From positions 77,430-141,429 of the forward strand of contig DUTP01000005.1 in the NCBI GenBank assembly GCA_012842045.1: DNA of 64,000 bases. The letters run 5' to 3'. How positions within the stretch are numbered: the stretch's first letter is position 1; each line of letters begins with the position of its first letter. The stretch is from Candidatus Dojkabacteria bacterium (GTDB lineage: Bacteria; Patescibacteriota; Dojkabacteria; SC72). The notes under the pieces are model-generated. The model did not search any database. It was given only the letters and a program-made list of their open reading frames with translations, and was not told where the DNA came from. A program made the position numbers and the translations under genes. Below are positions 17,887 to 53,729 of the stretch, one piece after another.

Positions 17887-18357
17887 TTAGTTATTTACTA
17901 AATTAACTAAAATCACAGTCAGCGAGATTATAGCGATTATTATACTTACAAGCAAAAGTTTTGTTAAATGTTTTTCTCTGCTGTAGTTTCTAGATGCAAA
18001 AATAAATGTGGGGACTGAGATAGTAGTTGAGATAATAGGGTATAAGTAAATCATTTCCTTTGGTGTGAGTATATTTTTGGGGTTTATATAAAACTTGAAA
18101 ATAGGAAGAGATGTTGGAAGCGAATTAATATTTGTAGAAATAATATATACTTGATAGAGAGTTAAAATAAGAAAAGCCATTAAAGCAGCCCACACAAGAG
18201 GGTCTTTCAAAAACTTTACAACCTCCAACTTGATAACAACATCATCAAAGTCTTTTTTGATTTTATAGAATCTATTTTTAAAAGGCTCTTCTATCTCTAA
18301 ATCTAATTGTTTATATTGTTCCTCTTCTGTTTTTCCTTTTTTAGAAACTTTTTTCAT
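17887..18357 (-). CDS. Hypothetical membrane protein (156 aa)
   Basis: ORF with several TM helices, directly abutting the transferase gene. Confidence 0.4.
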   Translation of the reverse strand: MKKVSKKGKTEEEQYKQLDLEIEEPFKNRFYKIKKDFDDVVIKLEVVKFLKDPLVWAALMAFLILTLYQVYIISTNINSLPTSLPIFKFYINPKNILTPKEMIYLYPIISTTISVPTFIFASRNYSREKHLTKLLLVSIIIAIISLTVILVNLVNN

Positions 18358-25180: not shown

Positions 25181-25296
25181 AGGTTTGATTGTTTAGATAA
25201 TGTCTAAATATTATAATCACACATACTAATTTTAAAAACATCAATCTTAAATGGAGTATATTGCAGCTAGAGCACTGCTTTTCAGTATGGACCGAG

Positions 25297-25320
25297 AGGC
25301 TTATAGTGTGGTATAATATA
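25297..25320 (+). promoter_or_regulatory. Conserved 24-nt motif copy 2 AGGCTTATAGTGTGGTATAATATA (extended -10 TGGTATAAT at 25309-25317)
   Basis: Duplicate of 22843..22866. Lies ~180 nt upstream of the plus-strand gene at 25495. Confidence 0.4.
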
Positions 25321-25395
25321 AGTAGATATCTAGTGATAGATATATTGCTCTTTAAAAAGACAAAGGTTGCATTCTCTTAAATATATTTGTTTTTC

Positions 25396-25446
25396 CTATG
25401 CTACATAGAGTTCTTAATCTAATGTTGAGGGTTGTATGTAGCATAG
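25396..25446 (+). promoter_or_regulatory. Perfect 12-bp stem (CTATGCTACATA / TATGTAGCATAG) with a 27-nt loop in the 5' leader of the gene at 25495
   Basis: Seen directly. The loop contains GTTGAGGGTTG, which also occurs at 22828-22840. Confidence 0.4.
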
Positions 25447-25494
25447 CTATAAAACAAAAAATATATCCCTAATAGGGAGAAAGAGGAAATTAAA

Positions 25495-25977
25495 ATGGAA
25501 GAAAAAAAGAAAGAAAATTATTTTACTAGGTTTGTCAAGGAGCGTTGGAGAGCATCTTGGCAATATATTCTTGTATGTCTCCTCTTCGTTTTGTTGGCAT
25601 GGTTGGAAACGAAAGTTCCCCTAATCGCCTATATACATATGTATATATTTTTTGCAGGAGTAATCCTTTTCGTTTTAGGTTTGTTGTGTGTTTTCGTGCT
25701 TGCCAGGCTTATTGATGCTCACTGGTATTTAGACCAGTCAGTGATTTTGCGATATAGGGAGGATAAAAGTTATGAAAACTACGAGAGGCTTCTGAAGACT
25801 ATATTCATATGGAGCACATATGCTCTAAGTGGTATCCTGGTGATGTGGCAATTCACTAAGTGGTATTGGACCTTCGTTGTAACCGACAAGCCTGTCGTGC
25901 TTGTTGGAATTGTTTGGTTTGCAATTATGTCGTCCTTTCTGGCCTGCCTCATCATCTTATGGTGGAAGGAGAGATAG
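25495..25977 (+). CDS. Hypothetical membrane protein (160 aa, about four TM helices)
   Basis: ORF with hydrophobic helices; Trp-rich. Confidence 0.4.
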   Translation: MEEKKKENYFTRFVKERWRASWQYILVCLLFVLLAWLETKVPLIAYIHMYIFFAGVILFVLGLLCVFVLARLIDAHWYLDQSVILRYREDKSYENYERLLKTIFIWSTYALSGILVMWQFTKWYWTFVVTDKPVVLVGIVWFAIMSSFLACLIILWWKER

Positions 25978-26003
25978 ATAGCTTTTCCTTTGTCTTAGTA
26001 GTG

Positions 26004-26041
26004 GGACTCCTAAATTTGTTTTTTAACACTTAGGAGTCCTG
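26004..26041 (+). promoter_or_regulatory. Perfect 10-bp inverted repeat GGACTCCTAA...TTAGGAGTCC (16-nt T-rich loop) downstream of the 25495 gene and upstream of rpoB
   Basis: Seen directly. No 3' U-tract after the stem. Confidence 0.3.
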
Positions 26042-26235
26042 CTCAAATATTCTAACTCTCTAAAAATCCTAAAATATCCTACTAAATCGTTGACTTTACA
26101 TATATTATGTGGTAAACTTCCGAAAGTCGCTTGATTTTTTGATCAAAAAAGTGGTAACACAAAAGTCTTTTCTTTATGTTTTGTGGTTATCGCTTATCAA
26201 GTAAAATGTTATAACATAACCAAACAATTTACCCT

Positions 26236-29200
26236 ATGTTAAAACCTAAAACTAATCACTCTGGTAGGTTAAATTTGGGTCTTGAGTACTCCGGAGAGTT
26301 TGAGTTCCCAAATTTAATAGAAGCCCAGATTAATTCCTTTGAGGCTTTTAAGAAAGATGGTTTCCAAGAGATCTTTAATGAGATTAGCCCCGTTAAAGAT
26401 AATATGGAAAAGATGTGGACTCTGGAATTTAAAGATTTTAGATATGGAGATCCATATAGAGATATAGATGAGGCGATTAAGAAGGGTCTTTCCTACGAAG
26501 TTCCTGTTTATGCAACAGTCCAGTTAATGAATAATAAAACTGGAGAGATAAAGGAGCAAGAGATTTTTATTGCAGATTTACCAATAATGACAGACGATGG
26601 TGTCTTTGTTTTTAATGGTGTAAGAAGGGTTGTTACCCACCAAATTGTTAGGGCGGAGGGTGTTTTGTATGAAGAGGCAGACAGATTGCCTATGAGGACT
26701 CTTTACAAAGCAAGGTTGATGCCTGGCCAGGGTCCATGGTATGAGATAGATACAAACAGACATAGTGTAATCTCTATGAGAATTCTTCCAAAGAGACCTA
26801 AAGTTTTGATAACAGAGCTTTTAAGGGTGTTTGGTTGGGAAACAGATGAGGAGATTAAAAAGCTGTTTACTGATGTTGATACACATGAAGAGTATAAATA
26901 TATTGAAGCTACACTTGCCAGAGATTTTACAAAGAGTAAAGAAGAAGCAGTGATCAGTATTTACAACAAATTAAGACCAGACGAGTCTGTCACATTAGAA
27001 AGTGCAGAGAGATATGTTAAGAGTAACTTCTTTAATGTGAGAAAGTTTAATCTTGGTAAAATTGGTAGGTACCAATTAAATAGAAAGCTTGGTACCACAT
27101 ATGATGTTAACAATCCAGAACAGGCAGTTTTCTATGCTAGTGATATGGTTTTGATTATTAAGAGGTTAATTCAGCTAAATAATGGAGAAGTACAGCCTGA
27201 TGATATTGATCACCTTTCTAACAGGAGAATTAGGAGCGTAGGTGAGATATTAGCAAGGCAGTTAAATGGTGCTGTCAGGAGATTGGAAAAGAATATTAAA
27301 GATAAGATGAGTTTGTATGGCCAGGATTCAAAAGTCACACCTTCTATGTTGGTAAGTACAAAACCTATTTCAGCATCTATTCAATCATTCTTTGGTTCAA
27401 ACGCCTTGTCTACATTTATGGATCAAGTAAATGTGTTGGCGGAATTGGAGAACAAGAGGAAGGTTACTGCAGGTGGTCCTGGTGGTATTGCAAAGGAAAG
27501 GGCTACTTTCTCAATTAGAGAGGTTCATAACTCACATTATTCTAAGTTTGACCCAGTAACCAGTCCAGAATCTGCAAGTATTGGTGTTGTTGTGCAGTTA
27601 GCAATGTTAGCCAGGATAAATGAATATGGTTTTTTAGAGGCTCCTTACAGAGAAATCCGACATAAGGTTGGTAATAATAAAAAGGAGTTATTGAATAGAA
27701 TTTTATCTGAAGATATCAAGAAAATTGCTAAAGCTGGTGATTTCGTAGATGAAAAGTTAGCAGAAAAGATTATCAAGGAGAAGAGTGTTAAAGAGATTTC
27801 TGTTAAACCTTTTGTTACAGAGAATGTAGAGTATCTTGATGCTATGGATGAGGAGAATTTTAGAATTTCTTCAGCAACAATAGCAAAGGATGAGTATGGA
27901 AATATTACAGATACACTTTTGCCTATTAGGTATAAAGGAGAATTTCTTCTTGAAGATGCTTCTAGTGTAAACTATATAGATGCACTTGCTGGTCAGCAAG
28001 CTGGTCTTGGTATGGCTTTGATTCCTTTTATTTCTCACAATGATGCTATGAGAGCATTGACAGGAGCAAACCAGCAAAGACAGGCAGTTCCTCTTGTTAA
28101 ACAAGAAGCTCCTTTAATAGGAACAGGAATGGAAGAGGTTGTTGCAAGACAGTCTATTTGGGGTGTATTTGCCAAAGAAGCAGGAGAAGTTCTTTCTGTT
28201 GACGCTAACAAAGTGACTGTTAAGTATGAAAAAGAGGGTGTTGAGGATTACAAATTGACCTCTTTCTATAGAAGTAACGATAACACCTGTTTTGTACAGA
28301 AACCCATTTTGAATGTAGGTGATAAATTTAAGAAAGGTGATGCTATTGTTGATGGGCCAACTATGGTGAATGGAGAGATTTCTATTGGTACAAACCTAAG
28401 AGCAGCATTAATGTTCTTTGAAGGTTACAACTATGAAGACTCCGTTATCATTTCAGATAGGATTGTAAAGGATGACCTTTTAACCTCTATTAATATTAGA
28501 GAACATACTGTAGATATTAGAGATACAGAACTTGGACCCGAGATAATTACTGCAGATATTCCACATGTTAATGACAGAATATTACAGAAATTAGATGCAG
28601 AAGGTATTGTAATGTCTGGTACTCAGGTTAAATCAGGAGATATTCTTGTTGGAGTTGTTGCACCTAGAGGAGAGAAAGAGTTGACAGCAGAAGAAAGATT
28701 GTTAAGAGCAATCTTTGGAGAATCTGCAAGTGATGTTAGGGATAACTCACTAAGAGTTCCCCACGGAGAAGGTGGTATTGTAATTAGAAGTATTGTGCTT
28801 TCTGCAGATAAAGGAGATAAATTAGCACCAGGTGTTTTGCATCAGGTGAAAGTTTGGGTTGCAGAAACAAAGAAGATTGGTTTTGGAGATAAGATTGCAG
28901 GTCGACACGGAGATAAGAATACAATTGCAGCTGTCAGACCTGTTGAAGATATGCCTTTCACAGAAGATGGAGAACCTGTTGATATTATCCTAACTCCAAC
29001 ATTCCTTAAAAGAATGAATATGGCACAAGCTACAGAGGTTCATTTTGCTAAATATGCACACGACTTAGGTGTCAAGTTTGCTTTCCCAATATTTGAGGGT
29101 GAAAACATGGAGTGGTTAGAAGCAGAGATGAAGAAGCATGGTAAAAATATGGACCAGAGAGTAGACCTTTACGATGGTAGAACTGGTAAGAAGTTCCCAA

Positions 29201-29601
29201 GTAAGGTTACCGTAGGTATGAAATATGTTCTTAAACTCAAACATATTGCAGATGAGAAGGTACATGCAAGATCTACAGGACCATACACTGCAGTATCTCA
29301 ACAGCCACTTGGTGGGAAAGCACAGATGGGTGGACAGAGATTTGGGGAAATGGAAGTCTGGGCACTAGAAGCTCACAGTGCTCCTTATGCACTACAAGAA
29401 ATGCTTACAATTAAATCAGATGATATCAAGGGAAGATCATCTGCATACAAAGCTATTATCCATGGGGATAAGATAGAGAATGTAAATGTCCCTGAATCAT
29501 TCAAAGTCTTAGTCAAAGAACTAAATGCACTTTGTTTGAATATTGATTTAATTTCAAACCAAACAGAAGAAGAGGAGGTTGTAGAAAATGAGGACAAGTA
29601 A
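26236..29601 (+). CDS. rpoB: DNA-directed RNA polymerase subunit beta
   Basis: 1121 aa with conserved RpoB blocks throughout. Confidence 0.95.
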   Translation: MLKPKTNHSGRLNLGLEYSGEFEFPNLIEAQINSFEAFKKDGFQEIFNEISPVKDNMEKMWTLEFKDFRYGDPYRDIDEAIKKGLSYEVPVYATVQLMNNKTGEIKEQEIFIADLPIMTDDGVFVFNGVRRVVTHQIVRAEGVLYEEADRLPMRTLYKARLMPGQGPWYEIDTNRHSVISMRILPKRPKVLITELLRVFGWETDEEIKKLFTDVDTHEEYKYIEATLARDFTKSKEEAVISIYNKLRPDESVTLESAERYVKSNFFNVRKFNLGKIGRYQLNRKLGTTYDVNNPEQAVFYASDMVLIIKRLIQLNNGEVQPDDIDHLSNRRIRSVGEILARQLNGAVRRLEKNIKDKMSLYGQDSKVTPSMLVSTKPISASIQSFFGSNALSTFMDQVNVLAELENKRKVTAGGPGGIAKERATFSIREVHNSHYSKFDPVTSPESASIGVVVQLAMLARINEYGFLEAPYREIRHKVGNNKKELLNRILSEDIKKIAKAGDFVDEKLAEKIIKEKSVKEISVKPFVTENVEYLDAMDEENFRISSATIAKDEYGNITDTLLPIRYKGEFLLEDASSVNYIDALAGQQAGLGMALIPFISHNDAMRALTGANQQRQAVPLVKQEAPLIGTGMEEVVARQSIWGVFAKEAGEVLSVDANKVTVKYEKEGVEDYKLTSFYRSNDNTCFVQKPILNVGDKFKKGDAIVDGPTMVNGEISIGTNLRAALMFFEGYNYEDSVIISDRIVKDDLLTSINIREHTVDIRDTELGPEIITADIPHVNDRILQKLDAEGIVMSGTQVKSGDILVGVVAPRGEKELTAEERLLRAIFGESASDVRDNSLRVPHGEGGIVIRSIVLSADKGDKLAPGVLHQVKVWVAETKKIGFGDKIAGRHGDKNTIAAVRPVEDMPFTEDGEPVDIILTPTFLKRMNMAQATEVHFAKYAHDLGVKFAFPIFEGENMEWLEAEMKKHGKNMDQRVDLYDGRTGKKFPSKVTVGMKYVLKLKHIADEKVHARSTGPYTAVSQQPLGGKAQMGGQRFGEMEVWALEAHSAPYALQEMLTIKSDDIKGRSSAYKAIIHGDKIENVNVPESFKVLVKELNALCLNIDLISNQTEEEEVVENEDK

Positions 29602-32600
29602 AAATAAATTTGGAGACTTTGATGTCTTAAAAATTACTTTAGCATCTCCTGACCAGATATTAAACTGGTCATATGGTGAGGTTACAAAAGCTGAAACTAT
29701 TAACTACAGAACATTTAGGGCAGAGCCAGATGGTCTCTTCTGTGAAAAGATTTTTGGTCCAACAAAGAACTATGAGTGTTACTGTGGGAAATATAAAAAG
29801 ATTAGATACAAGGGAATTGTTTGTGATAAGTGTGGAGTAGAAGTAACAACCTCTGATGTAAGAAGAGAGAGAATGGGTCATATTGATTTAGCAATTCCTG
29901 TTGCACATGTTTGGTATGCATTTGGGATTCCTAATAAAATGTCTATAACCTTGAATATTCCACATAAGAAAATTCTGTCAGTTGTATATTACACAAGATA
30001 CATGGTAATTACTCTGGATGATGAGAAAAGAAAGGAGACTCTTGAGAAGGTTTTGGCTTTAAAGGATACAGAACTAAAAGATTTGAAAGAAGATTTAGAG
30101 AATGAGTTGGTTTTGGTTGCAGATAGTTTTGAAGATGAAATTAAATCTTTGAAGAAATCAAAAGAAAAGGGTGCTGAACTAAAATTAAGCCAGAGTGAAC
30201 ATAGAAGAAAACAGGCATTAGCAAAAGTTAGGAGAGATTTTGCAGAGAGAGAGGAAGAACTGGAAGCTTTCTATTCAAAACTTTATCAGTTGGTTGAGAA
30301 AATGACTGTTGGTACAGTTCTTTCTGAAGATGAATATTCTGATTTGGTGGATAGAGAGCTAGTATTCTTCGAGGCAATGATGGGTGCAGAAGCTATTGAA
30401 AAGTTATTAGAGAATTTAGATCTTGAAGGAGAACTTAAGGCATTGAAAAAACTTTCAACAAAGGAAAAAGGAGAAAAGAGAATGGCAACTATTAGGAGGA
30501 TTCAATATCTTGAAGGTTTCTTGAAGAATGGTATAAAACCTGGATGGATGGTGCTAAGGACACTACCCGTACTTCCTCCAGAGTTAAGACCAATAATTCC
30601 TCTTTCTGGAGGTAAATTTGCGACTTCAGATCTTAATGACCTTTATAGAAGAATTATTAATAGGAATAATAGATTAAACAGATTAATTGAAATTGGTGCT
30701 CCTGATGTTATTCTTAGAAATGAGAAGAGGATGTTACAGGAGGCTGTTGATGCCTTGATAGATAACTCTCATAGGCCTTCTAAACCTATGATGAACAATA
30801 AGAGATTACCATATCAATCATTGACTGATGATTTAAGAGGCAAGAAAGGTATCTTTAGGAAGAATCTTTTAGGCAAGAGAGTCGACTATTCAGGTAGGGC
30901 TGTCATTGATGGTGATCCAAGTCTTAAGTTTGATCAGTGTGGTATTCCAAAGTCAGTAGCATTAGAGATGTTTAAACCTTTTGTGATTTTTAAACTTTTA
31001 GATAAAGAACTAGCTCCTAATGTAAGAGTTGCAAGGGAGATGATTGAAGAGGAAGAAGATGTCATTTGGGACTTATTAGAAGAAGTAATTAAGAATAAAC
31101 CAGTGTTACTAAATAGAGCACCAACACTACATAAATATAGTGTACAGGCTTTCTATCCTAAACTTGTGGAAGGTGAAGCTATTAGAATCCACCCATTGGT
31201 ATGTAAGGCTTTTAATGCAGACTTCGATGGAGACCAGATGGCTGTTCATGTACTTTTGACAGATGAAGCGATTGAGGAAGCTAAGAAAGAAATGATGAGT
31301 TCTTTGAATATTGTTAACATCTCAAATGGTCAGGTATTAGCATCTCCAGCAAAAGATATGTTGATAGGTTTCTACTTAATGACAGATTTAGTAAAGAGTA
31401 AAAAACCTAAGATATTTGCAACTGAGAACTTAGCTAGAAAGGCTTATGAAAGAGATGAGATTTCTATCAGTGAAGAGATAATTGTTGGAATAGGTGGGAA
31501 AGCTGTAAACACTTCAGTGGGAAGAGTTATATTTAACAGTGTTCTTCCAGAAGGTATTGAGTTTGTAAATGAGAAGATAGGTATTAAGGGGATAAGAAAG
31601 ATAGTTGATAAAGTGAAGAACACTCACGAATTATCAGATTTGGTTGAATTGTTAGATGATATGAAATCTCTTGGGTTTAAGTATGCTACTGATTTAGCCT
31701 TTTCTTTCGCAATGGAAGATTGCAATATAGATTTTGATGCTAAAACTGAGATTAAGAAGATGGAGGAGAAAGATGAACAATTGCAGGAGAACTACATGCA
31801 AGGTTTGATGACAAAACGAGAGATGATTAATATCTCAACGAAGATGTGGGATGATTTCTCAGACGAGTTAGCAGAGCAAGCATGGCAGACATTATCTGAA
31901 GATAATTCAGTATATCAGATGGTAGAATCAGGTGGTAATGGAGGTAAGATTCAAGCAAGACAGGTTTTAACAATCAAAGGTGTTGTTAGAGACTCAAGAG
32001 GTAATCTTGTTGCTATGCCAATTAAGAGTAACTATAGAGATGGTTTAAGTGCATTTGAGTATTTTGTAGCTGCAAACGGTGGTAGGAAAGGTATTGCAGA
32101 TAGATCGCTTAAGACATCTTCTTCTGGTTACTTAACAAGAAAACTTGTTGATGTAGCTCATGATGTGATTATAAGACAAGACGATTGTGGTTATGATGGT
32201 CATGGACTTTCAATAGGAAGGAATGATAATAGAAGAATTGAATTTAAGGATAGAATCTTTGGAAGAGTCTTAGCTCAAGATGTTATTTTGAATAAGGAAG
32301 TTATTGGTAAAAAGAACCAGATTATCGATCAGGAACTATCCGAGAAGATTGATGAGTCAGGTATTGAGGAGGTCTTTGTAAGAAGTCCTCTTACATGTAA
32401 ATCACCTCTTGGTATGTGTAAGAAGTGCTATGGTTTGAATCTTGAAAATAACAAAGAAATTGCAATGGGTAGAGCGGTAGGTGTAATTGCTGCTCAGTCT
32501 ATTGGAGAACCAGGAACACAGATGACAATGCAAACATTCCATAGGGGAGGTGTTGCAAAGGTTGATATTACTCAAGGTCTACCTAGGATAGAAGAATTGT

Positions 32601-33469
32601 TTGAAGCTATGACACCAAAGGCAGAAGCAGAATTAGCTTCCATTGATGGAAAGGTACATATCGAACATGCTGAAGATGATTCTGCAACAATATTCATTTC
32701 TGGGGAGAAGAAGATTACAAGGAAATTTGTTGTTTCTAAAGCAAAGAAGGTATTAGTAGAAGATAAACAGGAAGTTAAGTTAGGACAGGTAATGTATATT
32801 GATTCTGATGAGACAGAGAAACAGGCACCTGTGGATGGAATTGTATCTCTTGAAGGAGGAATTCTAACCGTAATAGGAAGTAGCAAGGCAGAAGAAACAA
32901 TCTCTGTTTTACCAGGTATTGGGATATTAGTAGAGGAAGGTACAACAGTTGTGGCAGGAACTCAACTAACAGAAGGATCTTTAGATCCTAAGAAACTTGC
33001 TGAAGTTACAGAGATGTCGAATGTTCAGAAATACATATTAGATGAAGTTCAGAAGGTGTTTAATGACCAGGGTGTATCTATTGATGATATCCATATAGAG
33101 ATAATCCTAAGACAGATGGTAAGGCTGGGTAGAGTTGTAGATGCGGGAGATTCTGGCTACTTGGTTGGTTCCTATGTAAACAGATTTATAGCAGATCTCA
33201 AGAATGAGATGTTGGTCAAGGAAGGGAAAAACAAGGCTTTGATTCTGCCTAGACTGTATGGTATAAAGAAATCGTCTTTGAATACGGAAAGTTTCCTCTC
33301 TGCGATGTCATTCCAGGAGCAGGTAAGAGTTCTAACACACTCCGCAATCTTGGGTAAAACAGATTATCTAAGAGGTATGAAAGAGAATGTTATCATTGGT
33401 AAATTAATACCATCTGGAGAAGAAGCAGAGATAGAAAATGTATATGAGCTCGAAGAGCTTCAAGTTTAA
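29588..33469 (+). CDS. rpoC: DNA-directed RNA polymerase subunit beta'
   Basis: 1293 aa. Zinc-binding CxxC...CxxC at the N-terminus and the NADFDGD catalytic motif. 14-nt overlap with rpoB. Confidence 0.95.
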   Translation: MRTSKNKFGDFDVLKITLASPDQILNWSYGEVTKAETINYRTFRAEPDGLFCEKIFGPTKNYECYCGKYKKIRYKGIVCDKCGVEVTTSDVRRERMGHIDLAIPVAHVWYAFGIPNKMSITLNIPHKKILSVVYYTRYMVITLDDEKRKETLEKVLALKDTELKDLKEDLENELVLVADSFEDEIKSLKKSKEKGAELKLSQSEHRRKQALAKVRRDFAEREEELEAFYSKLYQLVEKMTVGTVLSEDEYSDLVDRELVFFEAMMGAEAIEKLLENLDLEGELKALKKLSTKEKGEKRMATIRRIQYLEGFLKNGIKPGWMVLRTLPVLPPELRPIIPLSGGKFATSDLNDLYRRIINRNNRLNRLIEIGAPDVILRNEKRMLQEAVDALIDNSHRPSKPMMNNKRLPYQSLTDDLRGKKGIFRKNLLGKRVDYSGRAVIDGDPSLKFDQCGIPKSVALEMFKPFVIFKLLDKELAPNVRVAREMIEEEEDVIWDLLEEVIKNKPVLLNRAPTLHKYSVQAFYPKLVEGEAIRIHPLVCKAFNADFDGDQMAVHVLLTDEAIEEAKKEMMSSLNIVNISNGQVLASPAKDMLIGFYLMTDLVKSKKPKIFATENLARKAYERDEISISEEIIVGIGGKAVNTSVGRVIFNSVLPEGIEFVNEKIGIKGIRKIVDKVKNTHELSDLVELLDDMKSLGFKYATDLAFSFAMEDCNIDFDAKTEIKKMEEKDEQLQENYMQGLMTKREMINISTKMWDDFSDELAEQAWQTLSEDNSVYQMVESGGNGGKIQARQVLTIKGVVRDSRGNLVAMPIKSNYRDGLSAFEYFVAANGGRKGIADRSLKTSSSGYLTRKLVDVAHDVIIRQDDCGYDGHGLSIGRNDNRRIEFKDRIFGRVLAQDVILNKEVIGKKNQIIDQELSEKIDESGIEEVFVRSPLTCKSPLGMCKKCYGLNLENNKEIAMGRAVGVIAAQSIGEPGTQMTMQTFHRGGVAKVDITQGLPRIEELFEAMTPKAEAELASIDGKVHIEHAEDDSATIFISGEKKITRKFVVSKAKKVLVEDKQEVKLGQVMYIDSDETEKQAPVDGIVSLEGGILTVIGSSKAEETISVLPGIGILVEEGTTVVAGTQLTEGSLDPKKLAEVTEMSNVQKYILDEVQKVFNDQGVSIDDIHIEIILRQMVRLGRVVDAGDSGYLVGSYVNRFIADLKNEMLVKEGKNKALILPRLYGIKKSSLNTESFLSAMSFQEQVRVLTHSAILGKTDYLRGMKENVIIGKLIPSGEEAEIENVYELEELQV

Positions 33470-33494: not shown

Positions 33495-33917
33495 ATGCCA
33501 ACAATAAACCAGTTAGTAAGAAAACCTAGAAAATCTGCAAAGAAGAAGACTAAGCATATTCAACTTGCTAGGAACTTCAATCCTTTGAAGAACAGATATA
33601 AAAGTACATCTAATCCTTTTAAGAGAGGTGTATGTCTTCAGGTAAGAACAATGACACCTAAGAAGCCTAACTCAGCACTTCGAAAGGTTGCTAGGGTAAG
33701 GATATCTAACGGAATGGAAGTAACTGCTTACATTCCAGGAGAAGGTCATAATCTTCAAGAGCACTCCGTTGTTTTACTTAAAGCAGGGAAGAAGAGAGAC
33801 TTACCAGGTGTAAAGTATATTGTAGTACGAGGTAAGTATGATGCTGCAGGTGTTAAGGGGAGGAAGAAAGCAAGATCTAAATATGGAGTTAAAAGAGAGG
33901 AGACAGAGTCTGAATAG
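33495..33917 (+). CDS. rpsL: 30S ribosomal protein S12 (140 aa, with a ~15-aa insertion relative to typical S12)
   Basis: [10 protein letters not shown]...[47 protein letters not shown] box at 33482-33487 lies 7 nt upstream of the ATG. Confidence 0.9.
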
Positions 33918-33938: not shown

Positions 33939-34409
33939 ATGAGAGGAAAAAGAGCTAAAAAAAGAGAGATAAAGTTAGATAGGAAATATTCCAACCCTAT
34001 CATTGCAAGATTTATCAGCAAAGTTATGTTAGATGGAAAGAAGAGTCTTTCAGAGGCTTTGGTGTATGCAGCTATTGAAAGTGGAGCAGAAGCAGTCAAA
34101 GAGAAGGATGTTGTAGCTTTTGTTGATAAAGCTATTGATAATGTAAGACCAGCACTTGAGATTAAAGCAAGAAGGGTAGGTGGTGCTAACTATCAAGTTC
34201 CAGTGCCTGTTTCTCCAAAGAGACAAGAAGTATTGGCTGTTAGATGGATAGTGGATGCTTCTAGAAAGAAGAGTGGTAAATCTTTTGATGAAATATTGAA
34301 AGATTTACTAATAGATTCGTATAAGGGAGAAGGTGATGCTGTTAAGAAGAAAGAAGAAGTTGAGAGAATGGCGGAAGCTAACAAAGCATTTGCACACTTT
34401 AGATGGTAG
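33939..34409 (+). CDS. rpsG: 30S ribosomal protein S7
   Basis: 156 aa with the S7 fold and a conserved C-terminus (...FAHFRW). Confidence 0.9.
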   Translation: MRGKRAKKREIKLDRKYSNPIIARFISKVMLDGKKSLSEALVYAAIESGAEAVKEKDVVAFVDKAIDNVRPALEIKARRVGGANYQVPVPVSPKRQEVLAVRWIVDASRKKSGKSFDEILKDLLIDSYKGEGDAVKKKEEVERMAEANKAFAHFRW

Positions 34410-34435
34410 TATTCATTTTAAATTAGGATTGGGAT

Positions 34436-34464
34436 GGAGAGGTGTAATAGCCTCTCTTTTTTTT
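34436..34464 (+). terminator. Intrinsic terminator after rpsG (GGAGAGG-loop-CCTCTC followed by eight T)
   Basis: Seen directly. Confidence 0.6.
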
Positions 34465-34469
34465 ACAGA

Positions 34470-34498
34470 TTGACAATCGACCGTTATACGACTATAAT
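34470..34498 (+). promoter_or_regulatory. Perfect consensus sigma-70 promoter TTGACA-N17-TATAAT, 6 nt upstream of the Fic gene ATG (leaderless)
   Basis: ttgacaatcgaccgttatacgactataatgcgactATG. Confidence 0.6.
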
Positions 34499-34504
34499 GC
34501 GACT

Positions 34505-35545
34505 ATGTTTAGACCAAAATATACTCTAACTAACTCCCTCTTAATCAACATTCGTAAAGTTGGAGAGTTAATAGGGGAGTTAAATAGTAAACAATTAACA
34601 GAAACCGTATTTTTCAACTTGGAGAAAAAGGCTAGAATACTCTCTTCTTTTACATCTACTAAAATAGAGGGGAATCCATTATCACTCACTGATGTCAAGA
34701 TTATTCTTAAAACAGAACCTAAGAATATTAAAGATACAGAGAAAGAAGTAATTAACTACAATGATGTTGTAGTAATGTTAAACGACGAGATTAAGAATAA
34801 AAAGGATTTAATTCTTTCAGATAAGTTAATTTGTAAGATACAGGGTATTGTTACAAAAGGCTTACTTCCTACTTCATATGGAGGGAAATATAGGAAAGAA
34901 CCAGTGTTTGTAAACAATCCATTAACAGGAGAAACAGTGTATTGGCCTCCTGATGCAAAAGATGTGAAAAAGTTGATGAAAGAGTTGATAGATTTTGTAA
35001 ATAAGTCTGAAGGGAAGATAGATCCTTTGATTTTAGCAGGTATTTTTCACAAACAATCAGTTGTAATTCATCCATTTATGGACGGTAATGGAAGAACTAC
35101 AAGACTGGTTACTAAAACATTACTTGCTAAATTAGGTATAAATACATTTCCTCTCTTTAGTTTTGAAAATTACTACAACAAAGATGTGTCTAAATATTTT
35201 CAAAAAGTAGGAGTAATGGGTAACTATTACGATATAGCTAATGATTTAGACTTTACAGAGTGGTTAGAATATTTTGTTGAAGGGATTTTAGATGAATTAA
35301 ATAGAGTTAAGAAAGATTTACCTAGATACAAGGAGAGATTAGAATCACACGAGAAGAAGATAGTAGAATATCTTAAAGATAATGGCTCAATATCATCTAG
35401 TGAGTATTATGATATTAGTAAGAGGGCTAAATCTACAAGAATTAAAGATTTTAGAACATTAAGAGACAAGGGTATTATTAAACCTGTTGGACAAGGAAAA
35501 GCAACATGCTATGTATTAGATAATGATTATTGGTTTTTGGAGTAA
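34505..35545 (+). CDS. Fic/Doc family protein (class II, N-terminal auto-inhibitory [ST]xxxE[GN] motif), with a C-terminal winged-helix domain
   Basis: Catalytic HPFMDGNGRTTRL; N-terminal STKIEGN inhibitory motif; C-terminal wHTH region. Confidence 0.8.
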   Translation: MFRPKYTLTNSLLINIRKVGELIGELNSKQLTETVFFNLEKKARILSSFTSTKIEGNPLSLTDVKIILKTEPKNIKDTEKEVINYNDVVVMLNDEIKNKKDLILSDKLICKIQGIVTKGLLPTSYGGKYRKEPVFVNNPLTGETVYWPPDAKDVKKLMKELIDFVNKSEGKIDPLILAGIFHKQSVVIHPFMDGNGRTTRLVTKTLLAKLGINTFPLFSFENYYNKDVSKYFQKVGVMGNYYDIANDLDFTEWLEYFVEGILDELNRVKKDLPRYKERLESHEKKIVEYLKDNGSISSSEYYDISKRAKSTRIKDFRTLRDKGIIKPVGQGKATCYVLDNDYWFLE

Positions 35546-36478
35546 TTATTTAGTACTCTCAATCCTCTCCCAACCACTTTTAGGCATATCTTTCTTGAGA
35601 ACTTTTCTTTCCCAGAATATCCTTATCCATGTAATAAGTCTTGCAGGAAAGAGCATTAAAGACCATATGAATTCTTTAAAGTTTTTAGCATATTTCAATA
35701 CAAATCCAGCATATTCTAACTCTATCCAAAAACTTCTAGTTTGTTTGTCCTTTTGAAAAACACCCATCTGTTCAAGTTGAGTAAAACCTCCTACAGATCT
35801 AACTTTCTGTTTAAGGTAATCTTTAAAATTGGCTGGGTATTTAACATAACAGATGGCTTTAGGAGCATATCCAACTTCCAAACCATTGTTTCTAACGGTG
35901 TATGAAATATATGCATCATCGGAGAGTGTATTAGATGGTAATTTAATATTTTTGTTCCTAACTGCCATGATATAGCCACTCATAGGGTAGAATGTCTCAT
36001 CGCTTACATAATAGTCTTTGACTTTTTCTGCAGTATTAATTCTTTTGTCATGTGCTGAGTCAGAGAGTAGGTGTCCCCAATATCCAAACATATTATCTCT
36101 TTTATCTTTTGATACGGGTCTTCCACCAACACCACCAACTTTGCTATCTTCAAATGGTTTGAGTAATTCTTTAACAGCATTCTTTTCAAAATGAGTATCG
36201 CCATCTGTTAGTATTAAGATATCCCCCTTAGCCTTTTTAAAAGCCATTTTTAAAGCATAAGGCTTACCTTTTCTAGGGTCTTTAATTTGGATATATTTCT
36301 TTCCTAGTCTATACTTTTTTGCTTCTCTCAAACCAGCATCTAAGGTTTCTTTATCAGGGGATACTTGTATTATTTCAAACTGTATTGGTATACCTGAGTA
36401 TTTTCGATTCCCTATTGCAGCAATACAGCGTCCAATAGTCTTGGGCTCTTTAAATGAAGTTATTATTACAGAAACCAT
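35546..36478 (-). CDS. Family 2 glycosyltransferase
   Basis: VSVIITSFKE...ILILTDGDTHF (DxD-like) GT-A fold motifs. The stop abuts the Fic gene stop. Confidence 0.7.
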   Translation of the reverse strand: MVSVIITSFKEPKTIGRCIAAIGNRKYSGIPIQFEIIQVSPDKETLDAGLREAKKYRLGKKYIQIKDPRKGKPYALKMAFKKAKGDILILTDGDTHFEKNAVKELLKPFEDSKVGGVGGRPVSKDKRDNMFGYWGHLLSDSAHDKRINTAEKVKDYYVSDETFYPMSGYIMAVRNKNIKLPSNTLSDDAYISYTVRNNGLEVGYAPKAICYVKYPANFKDYLKQKVRSVGGFTQLEQMGVFQKDKQTRSFWIELEYAGFVLKYAKNFKEFIWSLMLFPARLITWIRIFWERKVLKKDMPKSGWERIESTK

Positions 36479-36499: not shown

Positions 36500-37162
36500 T
36501 TATTCTTCTGCTTTCTCCTCAGTATCTTTCTCTTCTTTTTCTTCTTCTGCACCTTCCTCACCTTCTGCTTCTTCAGTACCTTCTTCTGTTTCTTCGACAA
36601 CGACTTCTTTCTGTAACTCTGTAATTGTTACAACAGTAGCATGTTTGAGTTCTTCATTAACCAAAGTGATAGTATCCGGAATATTTAAATCACTGATAGC
36701 TATTGATTGTCCTGGATGTTCTAACTTTGAGATATCAACCTCTATAAATGGAAGGAGGTCTTTAACTTTACATCTTACCTCAATATCTTGGAGTACTTCG
36801 ACTAAAACACCAAGATTGTTTTTGACTGCTGGTGCAATACCAACAATTTCAAATGGAATAGAGAATACCATATCTTTACTCTCATCTATTTCAAAGAATG
36901 CAATATGTCTTAATTCGTCATTGACAGGATTAATATCAATCTCTTTTACAATAGCTTTAAATGTTTTACCTTCTAATTCTGCATCTAGAATGGTTGTAGA
37001 GGTTGCTTCTCTAGCTATTCTTTTTGCCGTAGTAGAGTCTAACATGATATTTTTGGATTCTGTTTTAGCATTGTATACAACAGCAGGGACGAATCCTTCG
37101 CTTAGCAAAACATTATTCTTTTTCCCATTTATATCTCTTTCGAGTAGTTTGATTGTTTCCAT
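36500..37162 (-). CDS. rplY: 50S ribosomal protein L25 / general stress protein Ctc
   Basis: L25 beta-barrel N-domain plus Ctc C-domain and an acidic tail. The likely start is at METIKLL, not the upstream M at 37201. Confidence 0.75.
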   Translation of the reverse strand: METIKLLERDINGKKNNVLLSEGFVPAVVYNAKTESKNIMLDSTTAKRIAREATSTTILDAELEGKTFKAIVKEIDINPVNDELRHIAFFEIDESKDMVFSIPFEIVGIAPAVKNNLGVLVEVLQDIEVRCKVKDLLPFIEVDISKLEHPGQSIAISDLNIPDTITLVNEELKHATVVTITELQKEVVVEETEEGTEEAEGEEGAEEEKEEKDTEEKAEE

Positions 37163-37303
37163 AATGTGTAGGAGTATAGCAGATAAATAAAGATGTAGCA
37201 ATACTTAGAATAATCTTTTACCTGTATCTACATCTACACTGGTAGCCAATAAAAAGCTATATCTAAGCATGAAGTTGTGAATATGTTAGACCTATATTTT
37301 AAT

Positions 37304-38113
37304 CTAGAGAAGATCTAGTATTTTTTTAGCTTTTTGTTGAGGATCTTGTATTTGCTCTTCTTCTTTCTTCTTTGCTAAAGACTCCTTCTCTTGCTTTTTG
37401 AATCTGTCTGACAGCTCTGACAGTTGTTCTTTAGGCCTATTGCTGAGATCATTACAATTAGCATCGAATATGATGCCAAACTCGCCACGGTCTGTTTTTA
37501 TTATCCCACGATTGTTCTCTGTTGCGTAATTTAATAATTGTGTTAACTCTTGTGATGTCAGATCTTCAACCTTTCCTATGTATGGACAGACACTCTGAAT
37601 ATGGAAATTGCCATTATCTGTGAATAGATAGGCTGGTTCCGTTGGATAATGTGTTATGTCTCCGTCTCGATCTTTATAGTATTCTCTAATAAATGCAGCT
37701 GTTGTACCATCTTCTAATACTATACGTTTAAAAGCATTTGGGTATTTCTCTAAAAGACCTTTTTTAATAGCTCTATTAAACTCTTGTCCTGGTGTCAATC
37801 CTCTCTCTACTTCTCTTTTCAGTGCTTGTTCTCTCTGTATCGCTTTGTCTATACCTTTTCCTTTTGCTACATATGCAATCTCTTCGGCATGTGCAGGATT
37901 TAGAATTTGACCATGCTTATTATAAAAACTTGTCGGTTTTTGTATTTTATCTATTTCTGTTTGAACTTCTGTCTTTGGTTCTCCGTATTCAGGAGTGTCT
38001 AAATCTTCATACTGTGTGACTAGTTTTGGTCCAGCACTTTCATTCTTTGATGGGTAACTAATACCAATATCTAGTCTTTCTCCTCCTGTCTCTAAATCAT
38101 TATCTGATACCAT
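37304..38113 (-). CDS. Hypothetical soluble protein (269 aa); no recognisable family
   Basis: ORF only. C-terminal Lys/Glu-rich tail. Confidence 0.35.
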   Translation of the reverse strand: MVSDNDLETGGERLDIGISYPSKNESAGPKLVTQYEDLDTPEYGEPKTEVQTEIDKIQKPTSFYNKHGQILNPAHAEEIAYVAKGKGIDKAIQREQALKREVERGLTPGQEFNRAIKKGLLEKYPNAFKRIVLEDGTTAAFIREYYKDRDGDITHYPTEPAYLFTDNGNFHIQSVCPYIGKVEDLTSQELTQLLNYATENNRGIIKTDRGEFGIIFDANCNDLSNRPKEQLSELSDRFKKQEKESLAKKKEEEQIQDPQQKAKKILDLL

Positions 38114-42392: not shown

Positions 42393-44219
42393 ATGCCTTA
42401 TCATATTACCCATATAATTAATAAGTGTTGCACAATGTCGAATAATTCAAAGCAGAAGAACAGTGTCTACATGATGATGGCATTGCTTCTAATCACTAAA
42501 GTATTAGGTTTTCTAAAGCTAAGAATTATTGCCCAGCTCTTTGGAGCTACGCATGAATTAGATATCTTTTGGGCAGCATTCACAATACCAGATACTCTCT
42601 TTATGATAATTGTTGCAGGTTCTCTCAATGCTGCTATCATTCCTCTATTAGCATCAGTATTACATAAAGAAGGAGAGAAGAAGCTGAATGAGTTTTTTAC
42701 CAACCTAATGATTGTCATCAGTTCAATTATTGTTTTCATAGCAGTTCTTCTCTTTATCTTTGCACCTCAACTAACAAGTTTCCTGATTAGATCAGATGTA
42801 TCACAGAGTATTCTTAATTTCTCAAGTAGGATAACACAGGAAGACTTTAAGTTGTTTGTAGATTTGACTAGAATTATGATGATATCTCCTGTACTACTAG
42901 GTATTAGTACAATAGTTACAGGGTACCTTCAAACTAGAAGAGAGTTTTTCATTACATCTCTTGCACCTCTAATGTACAACCTAGCAATGGTTGTAGGACC
43001 AATTATTTTTGTAGTTGGTTTTAAAATGGGTGTGAAGGGAGTTGCAATCTGTGCAGTGCTAGGTTCGTTCCTTCATTTTGCAGTACAAATCCCTACACTT
43101 AGAAAATATTTCAAAGAAAAGGTTAAACTAACTAAGAAAAGCATTGTAAGTGCTGTGAAAGATTCTGCAATCTGGAAAGGTTTAAAGCTAGCTGTGCCAA
43201 AGATGATTTCAACCATAGGGGAACAGATAAATATTGTTGTTAATACATTGATAAGTTTTTCCTTAGCAGCAGGAGCTCTTAGTTCTTACAAGTTTGCACT
43301 TAGTCTCTATCTCTTTCCTGTTAATATAGTAGGAGGCGCTTTTGCACAGTCTGTCTTACCAGAACTGTCTTCTAAAGCAGATAAACAGAAGGAATTTAAA
43401 GATGTTTTTAACAAAACAATCCAATTAGCTCTCTTTTTAGTACTTCCAATAGTTAGTATTCTACTTGTTCTTAGATTGCCAATTGTTAGATTAACTTTTG
43501 GTGTTGGAGAATTTGACTGGAGAGCAACAGTTCTTACATCTTGGTGCTTGGTATTTCTTTCTCTTGCAATATTAAGTCAAACACTCTCACAGATACTTTT
43601 AAGAGCTTTTTATGCACTTAAAGAAACATGGAAACCTCTTCTAGCAGTGGGTGTAGGGATAGTGGTTAATATTGTTTTTGCATTCCTACTAACAAACTTC
43701 TTTAGTCATTACTACGACTGGAGACCGATACTCCAGCAGGTATTAGAACAGATTGCAACTGCGAATGGTAGTGGGGTGGTAGAGGTAATAAAATCATTTT
43801 TTGCAGATATATTTACATGGTGTACTACTCGAGGAACTTCTGATATGGCAGTGGGTGGCTTATCTATGAGTTTGAGTTTAGCTTCTTTTGTCGAATTAAT
43901 CTTGCTTTTCTGTTTACTAAACAAAGAGGTAAAAATCATTACCTACAAGGATACAGTGAAGCCTATGCTTAAGAAGGTTTTGAATGGTATCTTAATGGCG
44001 GTAGGTATGTATCTAGTATTCAAGCTTTTTGATTTCAAATTAGATACTACAAGAACAATTTCAATCATTATTCTTACAATAGTGACTTCTCTCTATGGTC
44101 TGCTTTCTTACTGGCTTGGTTCTAAAGTCTTCGAAATTAAAGAGGTTGGTCGTTTTGAAGAAAAAGTAAAAAGTGTTTGGGAAAAATTGAAGAAGAAAGT
44201 TAAGGTATGGGTAAAGTAA
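42393..44219 (+). CDS. murJ: Lipid II flippase MurJ/MviN
   Basis: 14-TM MOP-superfamily pattern (LGFLKLRIIAQLFGAT...). The true start may be the internal Met at about 42435. Confidence 0.8.
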   Translation: MPYHITHIINKCCTMSNNSKQKNSVYMMMALLLITKVLGFLKLRIIAQLFGATHELDIFWAAFTIPDTLFMIIVAGSLNAAIIPLLASVLHKEGEKKLNEFFTNLMIVISSIIVFIAVLLFIFAPQLTSFLIRSDVSQSILNFSSRITQEDFKLFVDLTRIMMISPVLLGISTIVTGYLQTRREFFITSLAPLMYNLAMVVGPIIFVVGFKMGVKGVAICAVLGSFLHFAVQIPTLRKYFKEKVKLTKKSIVSAVKDSAIWKGLKLAVPKMISTIGEQINIVVNTLISFSLAAGALSSYKFALSLYLFPVNIVGGAFAQSVLPELSSKADKQKEFKDVFNKTIQLALFLVLPIVSILLVLRLPIVRLTFGVGEFDWRATVLTSWCLVFLSLAILSQTLSQILLRAFYALKETWKPLLAVGVGIVVNIVFAFLLTNFFSHYYDWRPILQQVLEQIATANGSGVVEVIKSFFADIFTWCTTRGTSDMAVGGLSMSLSLASFVELILLFCLLNKEVKIITYKDTVKPMLKKVLNGILMAVGMYLVFKLFDFKLDTTRTISIIILTIVTSLYGLLSYWLGSKVFEIKEVGRFEEKVKSVWEKLKKKVKVWVK

Positions 44220-44803
44220 TTAAGTATATATTATTATCACTTTTAGGTTTGTTTCTACTTTTTCTTGGTTATATCGTTTCTCAATATATTTCTTGGGAGA
44301 AGGAGTTTGTGAATAATAGGGGGGAAGGGATTGTTTGTACAAAAGACGAGGAGAAGGTAGAGATGGATTTTAAGGAGAGAATTGAGAATTTCATACTTTC
44401 GGATAGTTATGCGGAATTTTTAACTTTTTCAAAAAGAGAAGCTTTGTATTTGATAGAAGAGTCTATACCAGAGACTGAAGAGTTGAAGATTGAGGAGATG
44501 TGTTTGGAGACGGACAGTGGGAAATGGAAGATATATATACAGAGTAGATTTAAATCTTTTAAACTTCCTTGGATAGCTATTGATGTTGTGAAAGATAAAA
44601 GAGAAACTGCAGAGTTGTATACACCGAGTATGTATATTGGTAATCTGAAAGTACCAGAGAAATTCTCAAAAGGTTTGTTACAGAAGATAAGTAAGGGAGT
44701 TAGTGATGCTTTAATAGTAGTTACAGAGAACAATTTTTTAGGGAAGGAGATTAAGAATATAGATATTCTTAAGGATTCTGTTGTGTTTAAGGGTGGGTTG
44801 TAG
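44207..44803 (+). CDS. Hypothetical membrane-anchored protein (198 aa)
   Basis: N-terminal TM. 13-nt overlap with murJ. Confidence 0.4.
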   Translation: MGKVIKYILLSLLGLFLLFLGYIVSQYISWEKEFVNNRGEGIVCTKDEEKVEMDFKERIENFILSDSYAEFLTFSKREALYLIEESIPETEELKIEEMCLETDSGKWKIYIQSRFKSFKLPWIAIDVVKDKRETAELYTPSMYIGNLKVPEKFSKGLLQKISKGVSDALIVVTENNFLGKEIKNIDILKDSVVFKGGL

Positions 44804-49673: not shown

Positions 49674-50422
49674 TATTGTTATCAGAAAAAGAAGAGAAAT
49701 CTTTAATTTCTGGGTCAGGATATCTGTATATATTTTTACTGTTGAGGTAGGTCGTAATGTTTTACAGTGAAGATTACAGAATCCGTAGTTGCACATTTAA
49801 AACTGAATAGAAAGTAATTTCAATTAAGCAAATTAAGGGCGTATGGTGAATGCCTTGGCACAAAAGATCGATGAAGGACGTAGTAGATTGCGATAAGCTT
49901 CGGGTAGCTGTCAAACGAGCTTTGATCCGAAGATCTCCGAATGGAGTAATCCAACTGGGATTATGCCCAGTTATCATGCAGTGAATTCATAGCTGTATAG
50001 AAGAGCACGCAGGGAAGTGAAACCTCTCAGTACCTGCAGGAAAAGAGAACAAGAGTTTATTCCCCTAGTAGTGGCGAGCGAAAAGGGAAGAGCCTAAACC
50101 TATACTGTGTAAGAGGAATACGAAGCCTGATTCGCGTTGCGATGATGGCGGACTTGAACTCGCAGGTTGCTACTCGTGCAGTATGGGTGTTGTAAGAGTT
50201 AATGGAAGTGGTAGCAAACACTTCGAGGAGTTACAAAATTCCATTTTAGTAGAATATATCTGGAAAGATATGCCATAGAGAGTGATAGCCTCGTATACGA
50301 AAATGTGGAATCTCCTTTTTAATTTCTTAAGTACCACGGAACACGTGAGATTTTGTGGGAATCAGCCGATACCACTCGGCAAGGCTAAATATCTTTTGTG
50401 ACCGATAGCGAATTAGTATAGA

Positions 50423-50466
<44 letters not shown>

Positions 50467-53633: not shown

Positions 53634-53665
<32 letters not shown>

Positions 53666-53698
53666 ATTGGATAAGATCCCAAGGGTTGGACTGTTCGT

Positions 53699-53729
<31 letters not shown>

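Follow-up and report, generated by a model that had tools for sequence, protein, structure and literature searches.

The window considered here is a stretch of 64,000 nucleotides from a Candidatus Dojkabacteria genome (contig DUTP01000005.1, positions 77,430 to 141,429 of the forward strand); it is AT-rich, with about 35% GC, and its ribosomal protein S7 has as nearest relatives those of Candidatus Dojkabacteria (WS6, of the candidate phyla radiation, CPR), at 81% and 72% identity. The contig also occurs in SRR2420280 and JGI 3300002837. Our subject is a gene for a Fic protein of 346 aa with a C-terminal winged helix-turn-helix domain (wHTH), which gene comes after rpsG at the place where the canonical str operon (rpsL-rpsG-fusA-tuf) would continue with the genes for the elongation factors EF-G and EF-Tu. 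The order of genes around it is ftsK (minus strand), an open reading frame (ORF) of 160 aa, rpoB, rpoC, rpsL, rpsG, Fic, a gene for a GT2 glycosyltransferase (minus), the L25/Ctc gene (minus), an ORF of 269 aa (minus), and hrcA-grpE-dnaK (plus). The features referred to below, in window positions, are as follows:

26236-29601: rpoB
29588-33469: rpoC
33495-33917, plus strand: rpsL (ribosomal protein S12; Pfam PF00164, 9e-34), with a TATAAT 7 nt 5' of its ATG
33939-34409, plus strand: rpsG (ribosomal protein S7; Pfam PF00177, 1.4e-49), the final gene of the rpoBC-rpsLG block
34436-34465, plus strand: intrinsic terminator of rpsG, an 8-bp stem (34436-34457, GGAGAGG/CCTCTC(T)) and then T8
34470-34475, plus strand: -35 hexamer TTGACA of the Fic promoter, invariant in four relatives
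34477-34487, plus strand: repeat R1, TCGACCGTTAT, the 11-bp unit in degenerate form, inside the promoter spacer
34488-34498, plus strand: repeat R2, ACGACTATAAT, which includes the -10 hexamer TATAAT (34493-34498)
34499-34509, plus strand: repeat R3, GCGACTATGTT, which includes the predicted +1 and the ATG (34505)
34505-35545, plus strand: Fic gene, 346 aa, class II Fic with C-terminal wHTH (Pfam Fic, PF02661, 7.7e-18)
34655-34672, plus strand: inhibitory motif S51-T-K-I-E55-G56, of the form (S/T)xxxE(G/N), N-terminal to the active site
35069-35104, plus strand: catalytic Fic motif H189-P-F-M-D-G-N-G-R-T-T-R200
35345-35518, plus strand: predicted wHTH, residues 281-338 (DSSP topology, Foldseek matches, covariation with the repeat core)
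35429-35467, plus strand: predicted recognition helix, residues 309-321, with I313 at 35441-35443
35546-36478, minus strand: GT2 glycosyltransferase gene, convergent with Fic (Pfam GT2 families)
36500-37201, minus strand: rplY/ctc (L25 general stress protein), upstream of the GT2 gene (Pfam and NCBIfam; same order in the relative L084)

The intact rpoB-rpoC-rpsL-rpsG series and the intrinsic terminator behind it, both described in an initial annotation of this DNA, were recovered by folding and Pfam: the terminator hairpin is present in the minimum-free-energy as well as in the centroid fold (z = -2.0), and its stem is kept in three relatives, L083, L084 and L085. At the other end, the Fic stop TAA (35543-35545) directly adjoins the stop of the convergent GT2 gene (TAA/TTA, an intergenic distance of 0 nt), as had likewise been described; and, since no intrinsic terminator was detected at this junction on either strand, the Fic and GT2 transcripts may overlap as antisense. 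The 3' junction of Fic is equally tight (1 nt) in L083, L084 and L085, even with a different downstream gene. The start at 34505 is backed by the family-wide N-terminus MFxPxYxxT; the longer gene calls present in databases (369 and 391 aa) were rejected, those calls either crossing the promoter and the terminator or overlapping rpsG, and the family N-terminus being MFxPxY.

The Fic promoter, TTGACA-N17-TATAAT at 34470-34498, is the sole 12/12 match in the 64 kb, where 0.05 would be expected, and its -10 box ends 6 nt 5' of the ATG, the textbook arrangement that the initial annotation had pointed out; Fic has no Shine-Dalgarno sequence. In the alignment of the rpsG-Fic spacer from four relatives, the -35, the 17-nt spacing, the -10 and the 6-nt gap to the ATG are all invariant, down to a Fic identity of 74%; and in CP129478, whose homologue is 62% identical and lies in another context, TTGACT-N17-TATAAT-N6-ATG is formed from three perfect copies of ACGACTATAAT. 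Over 30 family loci (44-100% identity) the promoter spacer measures 17 nt in 29; in 22, 6-9 nt separate the end of the -10 from the start, and a leader of 25-38 nt is found in 7. From this geometry we infer that the Fic mRNA is leaderless and starts at about 34505.

That the Fic gene has a leaderless geometry had been proposed before, and this part of the proposal stands; what does not stand is the special status that went with it, inasmuch as 13 of the 41 window genes have a -10-like hexamer whose end lies 5-10 nt 5' of the start, versus 4.6% of background ATGs, and these 13 include rpsL, dnaG and the class I aminoacyl-tRNA synthetase gene at 4765. A Shine-Dalgarno sequence precedes few of the window genes, though the 3' end of the 16S rRNA has CCTCC, and promoters of the leaderless type seem to be in heavy use in this genome; on such geometry in Dojkabacteria we found no paper in the literature. 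Examples of starts of the leaderless type are, besides the one at 4765, those of 14516-15166, 17887-18357 and 20085-21818, all on the minus strand, and that of rpsL at 33495; the TATAAT-like hexamer of the window genes often occurs as TGATATAAT.

Superimposed on the Fic promoter are three tandem 11-bp direct repeats, which extend from just 3' of the -35 box to the ATG and are composed, head to tail, of a 7-bp core CGACTAT and a 4-bp spacer. Tandem repeats of exactly this 11-nt period, just upstream of the start or overlapping it, occur in 28 of the 30 family loci, with a median self-match of 17/22 against 10/22 for 185 control gene starts from the same loci (Mann-Whitney p = 1.5e-17), of which controls only 3 reach a self-match of 15. 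The core reads CGACTA, CGTCTA or CGGCTA according to lineage, and the copies within one locus change jointly. This variable base is predicted perfectly by residue 313 of the protein—I, V or R going with A; N, A or S with T; and K with G—which residue (I313 in the window) sits in the predicted recognition helix and, in a scan of every alignment column, was the top mutual-information column of all 346 in three data subsets. A neighbour-joining tree for which only the Fic domain was used shows operators of the A type in four or more separate lineages, so that the association between residue 313 and the base does not go back to a single inherited event. Taken together, these observations point to the wHTH as the reader of the repeats, the covariation at residue 313 being the strongest evidence in this analysis; and, because the sites span the region from just 3' of the -35 to the +1, binding of the wHTH would probably repress the gene's own promoter. 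In a search for a wider regulon, no further copy of the paired repeat unit was found in the 64-kb window.

The wHTH proteins of the PhoB/OmpR group, which are response-regulator activators, bind a pho box of 7-bp repeats with a 4-bp spacer and hence an 11-bp period. The 7-bp core plus 4-bp spacer of the window, arranged head to tail, resembles this geometry, as would be expected of tandem wHTH sites on one face of the DNA; the window protein, however, is of another wHTH subfamily, its wHTH is fused to an enzyme, and its putative sites cover the -35 to +1 region, which location implies repression.

One could also suppose that the repeats are no operator at all, but instead either a by-product of promoter sequence, with a reiterated -10-like TATAAT, or the binding sites of another factor, in which circumstance the wHTH would serve for protein-protein or other DNA contacts. 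Because R2 embeds the -10 and R3 the start codon, constraints on the promoter and on initiation could indeed account for part of the conservation. What is conserved in a lineage-specific manner, however, is the core, CGNCTA, and this is no element of a promoter; the core changes in concert in the three copies and covaries with a single residue of the recognition helix, and the repeats are kept even where a leader of 25-38 nt parts them from the start codon, so that we regard this explanation as very improbable. As to how far the operator extends, distant homologues (about 30% identity) have tandem repeats in only 7 of 40 instances, with other units and periods, on which grounds the 11-bp triple repeat reads as a trait of the subfamily, and not as one general to Fic-wHTH proteins. 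The repeat sets at the starts of distant homologues consist of three copies of AGGTTGTCATTT at period 12, of ATGGGTA units at period 11 and of GATACTATCA pairs at period 13, at loci L121, L124, L135, L147; L128; L158, L162-L165. Lineage-specific operators may be common across the wider Fic-wHTH family.

The protein is assigned to the Fic/Fido nucleotidyl-transferases by its HxFx(D/E)GNGRxxR motif and by Fido-fold matches to many Fic structures. Its catalytic positions H189, F191, D193, G194, N195, G196, R197 and R200 are invariant in 42 homologues, and so are P190 and T198, with M192 and T199 varying; the same invariance applies to S51, T52, E55 and G56 of the inhibitory motif, which is located at the end of a predicted helix (33-54), and also to N57. 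According to the scheme of Engel et al. 2012, class II Fic proteins bear the inhibitory (S/T)xxxE(G/N) within the same chain and N-terminal to the Fic core, and this is the arrangement of the window protein. The catalytic loop and the N-terminal STKIEGN motif of a class II enzyme, as reported in the initial annotation, are thus both present, and the active-site motif is intact.

The AlphaFold model of the whole protein (predicted local distance difference test, pLDDT, 87.7) matches over its full length 4RGL, Coxiella Fic2, 7XUX and SoFic, with template-modelling (TM) scores of 0.58-0.68, and displays, in this monomer model, a long predicted N-terminal helix (residues 10-28) before the inhibitory helix; proteins of the SoFic/CccR-like kind form homodimers by way of their N-terminal helix. 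The best sequence match in the PDB is also 7XUX (6e-15), which we take to be CccR by its length of 380 aa and its release date. The C-terminal region has in the model the topology of a wHTH (helices 281-293, 298-305 and 309-321, strands 325-328 and 335-338), and, when modelled alone (residues 268-346; pLDDT 80), matches in Foldseek the wHTH domains of AspA, ArsR, MarR and MftR and the C-terminus of Coxiella Fic2 at TM values of about 0.7, so that structure prediction agrees with the wHTH that had been assigned to this end of the protein. The SoFic model of PADLOC is matched at 8.5e-45; the SoFic equivalog of NCBIfam (NF046030) yields 66.3 bits, below its cutoff of 550 bits, and because of that failure the window protein is best described as sharing the SoFic architecture without being an orthologue of SoFic.

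A search of a 90%-clustered database gave 3,937 matches, the best 120 of which are all at least 54% identical and some 341-346 aa long; clustering at 50% leaves 9,795 representative clusters at E<=1e-3, and only 106 at E<=1e-30. The few named members belong mostly to CPR or candidate phyla, namely Dojkabacteria, Parcubacteria, Roizmanbacteria and Saganbacteria. By sequence, then, we would place the protein in an uncharacterised, CPR-centred subfamily of the known class II Fic-wHTH (SoFic/CccR-like) kind; in the literature we found no paper combining Fic, AMPylation and Patescibacteria.

Two proteins of that kind offer the closest terms of comparison. CccR of Yersinia pseudotuberculosis represses its own promoter via its HTH, binds as a dimer to an operator of two inverted 10-bp repeats 26 bp apart, has an inhibitory motif (S59ARIEG) of the same type as that of the window Fic, and is an effector secreted by the type VI secretion system with FtsZ as its target (PMC9755527). 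The likeness extends to the position of the repeats, which in CccR overlap the -35 and the -10 of the promoter that they repress, the regulatory and the enzymatic activities being separable; the differences are the identity of about 21%, the three direct repeats of the window with their 11-bp phasing into the start codon of a putatively leaderless gene, and the secretion of CccR for action upon FtsZ, whereas nothing in the window suggests a secretion of Fic. SoFic of Shewanella oneidensis (PDB 3EQX/3ZEC) is likewise of class II, with an N-terminal helix and a C-terminal wHTH, and has a full-length TM of about 0.67 but an identity of about 17%, below the equivalog cutoff. Dimeric SoFic binds the 100-bp stretch that precedes its own start codon, and EF-Tu is AMPylated by SoFic (bioRxiv 10.64898/2026.07.09.737422). 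By analogy with SoFic, EF-Tu is a candidate target of the window protein.

The class I Fic toxin-antitoxin pairs (VbhT/VbhA, FicT/FicA) and Doc/Phd share with the window gene the Fido fold, an inhibitory Glu helix (in class I) and autoregulated promoters, and Doc modifies EF-Tu. In those systems, however, a separate antitoxin gene both inhibits and binds DNA, whereas in the window the inhibitor, the enzyme and the DNA-binding domain form one chain. No room is left for the separate antitoxin gene of a type II toxin-antitoxin system: terminator and promoter take up the 95 nt that lie upstream, and on the downstream side the gap is 0 nt.

How the Fic gene came to stand after rpsG was approached through 80 loci that encode S7 relatives, taken with their flanks and searched with EF-G and EF-Tu, of which loci 77 were informative. 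In 72 of these 77, fusA begins at most about 1.2 kb from rpsG, a count that includes L082, where only the C-terminal part of EF-G was matched. Nine other CPR genomes are among those that keep fusA (Magasanikbacteria, Moraniibacteria, Saccharibacteria, Paceibacterota, Veblenbacteria and an unclassified Patescibacteria-group). The loci lacking fusA after rpsG are all three other Dojkabacteria loci (L003, L004 and L037) plus two unrelated genomes (L035 and L036). The window itself resembles the canonical str operon in having rpsL and rpsG adjacent after rpoB-rpoC, and differs from it, as do the three other Dojkabacteria loci, in missing fusA and tuf; no similarity to EF-G or EF-Tu was obtained anywhere in the 64 kb (tblastn, E<=1e-5), in agreement with the absence of both genes as first noted, and exact-protein look-ups of the terminal ORFs of the window, aimed at fusA/tuf beyond it, returned no record.

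In the other Dojkabacteria rpsG is followed by a Wzy fragment, YidC and Jag (L003), by an HD-domain protein and RnpA (L037), or by a terminator and a convergent GT2 gene (L004). Since fusA is absent 3' of rpsG in all three, and the genes found there differ, the comparison indicates that rpsLG was uncoupled from fusA-tuf early in Dojkabacteria, already in their ancestor, and that the site would still be a rearrangement-prone boundary; Dojkabacteria as a group thus appear to have separated rpsLG from fusA-tuf. The initial annotation had tied the break in the str operon to the insertion present in this window, a connection that the three fusA-less relatives do not bear out. Genes usually near the replication origin adjoin rpsG in L003 (yidC-jag, 4969-6901) and in L037 (rnpA, 3377-4438), which suggests that the rpsG boundary has been joined repeatedly to different regions. 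At the opposite end of the block, no rplK-rplA-rplJ-rplL precedes rpoB, the DNA upstream (25181-26235) having only the divergent ftsK and the 160-aa ORF (25495-25977), which latter is unannotated and without a Pfam hit; rpsG being similarly without fusA/tuf, the rpoBC-rpsLG block is thus cut off on either side.

The most informative relative is L004, whose RpoC is 72% identical to that of the window and where rpsG is followed by a hairpin, a spacer of about 40 nt and the stop of the GT2 gene, with no Fic. The L004 GT2 is the orthologue of that of the window, at 65% identity. Because the rpsG-terminator-GT2 arrangement thus exists without Fic, the GT2 gene is, by this comparison, the older, ancestral neighbour of rpsG, and only the Fic module (about 1.1 kb) would have been added, contrary to the earlier suggestion of a Fic-GT2 pair inserted as a unit. 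The hairpin of L004 has flanking runs of A and T, and could terminate in both directions. By eye, the intergenic DNA of L004 is too dissimilar from that of the window for the insertion boundaries to be mapped. The rpsG-Fic adjacency itself recurs in three relatives:

L083: Fic 95%, RpoC 96.7%; then a HAD hydrolase
L084: Fic 81%, the contig stopping short of rpoC; then GT2-L25-...-hrcA-grpE, as in the window
L085: Fic 74%, RpoC 81.4%; then a partial ORF on the minus strand

Relative to the window, RpoC identity is 96.7% and 81.4% in the Fic-positive relatives and 77.9%, 72.3% and 43% in the Fic-negative ones, so that the presence of Fic tracks RpoC distance (present at 81% or more, absent at 78% or less). 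This pattern fits one gain of Fic in the ancestor of a genus-level subclade followed by vertical descent, and therefore no recent insertion; the recent event contemplated in the initial annotation is likewise hard to reconcile with an rpsG-Fic adjacency and an identical promoter in relatives whose Fic proteins are 95, 81 and 74% identical. Outside the subclade, the Dojkabacteria record CP129478.1 (L086) has a 62%-identical Fic between a large hypothetical gene and nusA-ylxR-infB, with which Fic that of the window clade groups in the Fic-domain tree. In phage and plasmid records no close relatives of the Fic were found, the best being of 34% and 28% identity, and there was no sign of a known vector.

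The same data might alternatively be read as a Fic gene that already stood after rpsG in the ancestor of the wider group, and that L003 and L004 have since lost. Such losses would be in keeping with the rearrangement-prone character of the DNA 3' of rpsG—which is followed by GT2 in the window and L084, by a HAD hydrolase in L083, by Wzy/YidC/Jag in L003, and by an HD protein plus RnpA in L037—as well as with the grouping of the window-clade Fic with that of another Dojkabacteria, L086. But the L086 Fic lies at a different locus, the rpsG-terminator-GT2 junction of L004 is compact and without a Fic remnant, and presence and absence match RpoC distance cleanly; we thus consider ancestral presence with loss unlikely, and retain the gain in the subclade ancestor.

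With respect to the role of the Fic protein, the initial annotation had drawn a positional link with the elongation factors. The neighbours of 23 family loci do not sustain that link: the contexts are unrelated, with 89 Pfam families among 71 flanking ORFs and none in more than 2 ORFs, and these 23 loci revealed no conserved partner gene, antitoxin-like small gene or defence island. A functional coupling to translation would have the Fic modify EF-Tu or another factor, the siting at rpsG and at nusA-infB then serving co-regulation or surveillance. The structural relative SoFic AMPylates the switch I of EF-Tu and inhibits translation, and EF-Tu is phosphorylated by Doc (bioRxiv 10.64898/2026.07.09.737422); moreover, both Dojkabacteria contexts adjoin information-processing operons, and further neighbours are LepA, S2 and a GTP_EFTU-domain protein. 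The identity to SoFic, however, is only about 17%, and the best PDB sequence match, CccR, targets FtsZ and not EF-Tu (PMC9755527). In addition, the Fic gene has its own promoter and is insulated from rpsG by a terminator, the neighbours over the 23 loci are heterogeneous, and in small CPR genomes dense in housekeeping genes such neighbours are to be expected by chance, all of which makes the coupling decidedly unlikely. The position of the module beside translation genes is most likely incidental, as argued by that same heterogeneity and insulation and by a leaderless geometry that is common in the window.

Somewhat better placed, as a role compatible with the mechanism that we favor, is an abortive infection of the SoFic type against phages, in which a latent toxin would be freed upon infection and autorepression would keep its dose low. 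Consistent with this role are the match to the PADLOC SoFic defence model, the patchy, mobile-like distribution with a portable promoter, and the finding that SoFic homologues protect E. coli from phage, a dimerisation-dependent toxicity being described (PMC12249575). EcSoFic, however, has a small downstream antitoxin, AS1, and SoFic anti-phage systems often lie in defence islands, whereas neither applies to the window Fic: its neighbours are housekeeping genes, and with 0 nt to GT2 there is no space for a small AS1-like gene. Stable vertical inheritance at one site within the subclade and the lack of close phage or plasmid relatives also tell against a defence role, which we accordingly hold as possible but doubtful.

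The reading that we prefer, and to which we assign a probability of roughly 0.7, is that the Fic locus constitutes a self-contained, single-gene module—a consensus promoter, three repeats and a leaderless, autorepressing class II Fic-wHTH gene—which was gained 3' of rpsG in the ancestor of the subclade and whose position there is incidental. The module occupies about 1.08 kb (34470-35545), comprising the consensus sigma-70 promoter, the repeats and the gene. In this scheme RNA polymerase would start at about 34505, the mRNA beginning at the ATG, as judged from the geometry; the wHTH would then bind the three repeats, phased at 11 bp on one face of the helix, and shut off its own strong promoter, for which step conservation and covariation are the evidence, and the self-repression of CccR and the binding of SoFic to its own promoter the experimental precedent. 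By analogy with known Fic enzymes, the intact HxFxDGNGRxxR site would be gated by Glu55 in a hold state, incompetent for AMPylation and possibly deAMPylating, until a signal released the Fic domain to nucleotidylate a target protein, the candidates being EF-Tu, FtsZ or another essential protein. Historically, the rpsG-fusA link would already have been broken in the ancestor of Dojkabacteria, leaving locally an rpsG, a terminator and a convergent GT2 gene, between which the Fic module landed.

Several points weigh against this scheme. The choice between gain and loss with respect to L003 and L004 was settled by parsimony on few genomes; the covariation comes from 26 related sequences, whose phylogenetic non-independence was reduced, not removed; and R1 of the window is degenerate, with a 7/11 match to R2. 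The wHTH of the window protein is sub-threshold in Pfam (E of about 0.1), the assignment resting on the predicted structure and on homologues of 65% identity, which match HTH_24 and HVO_A0114. Finally, the characterised homologue CccR recognizes, as a dimer, two inverted repeats 26 bp apart, which does not explain how a SoFic-like dimer would read three head-to-tail sites.

A bolder version of the module, which we think very unlikely, would be a portable cassette of promoter, operator and enzyme with a DNA code re-programmable at residue 313, a translation GTPase such as EF-Tu as its target, and a functional placement at rpsG and nusA-infB; if that were true, the recurrent siting beside translation and transcription operons would be functional and not accidental. 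According to the single-gene module preferred here, the apparent oddity of a Fic gene in the place of EF-G and EF-Tu would instead reflect an ordinary history, in which an old, clade-wide operon break was followed by a later single-gene insertion. An uncharacterised Fic-wHTH subfamily, abundant in metagenomes, thereby acquires a sharply defined candidate operator and a specificity rule of one residue to one base; and the autoregulation of Fic proteins, so far shown for CccR only and suggested for SoFic, becomes directly testable.

Elsewhere in the window, the ORFs at 37304-38113 (minus), 44207-44803 (plus) and 8655-9209 (plus) have no Pfam or NCBIfam match; the first of these, 269 aa long, separates L25 from hrcA, and in its place the relative L084 has shorter ORFs, of 61 and 161 aa. 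The 23S rRNA gene (49822-54044) exceeds the Rfam model by about 1.3 kb; within it, in a low-GC segment, lie an ORF for a LAGLIDADG homing endonuclease (52147-52644; Pfam, 3.1e-20) and, at 52762-52990, a group I intron scoring 78.8 bits. The protein of 2,071 aa encoded at 57112-63327 (minus) combines seven DUF285 repeats with Ig-like and CarboxypepD_reg domains; probably a large protein of the cell surface, it is followed by a CarboxypepD_reg protein of 201 aa.

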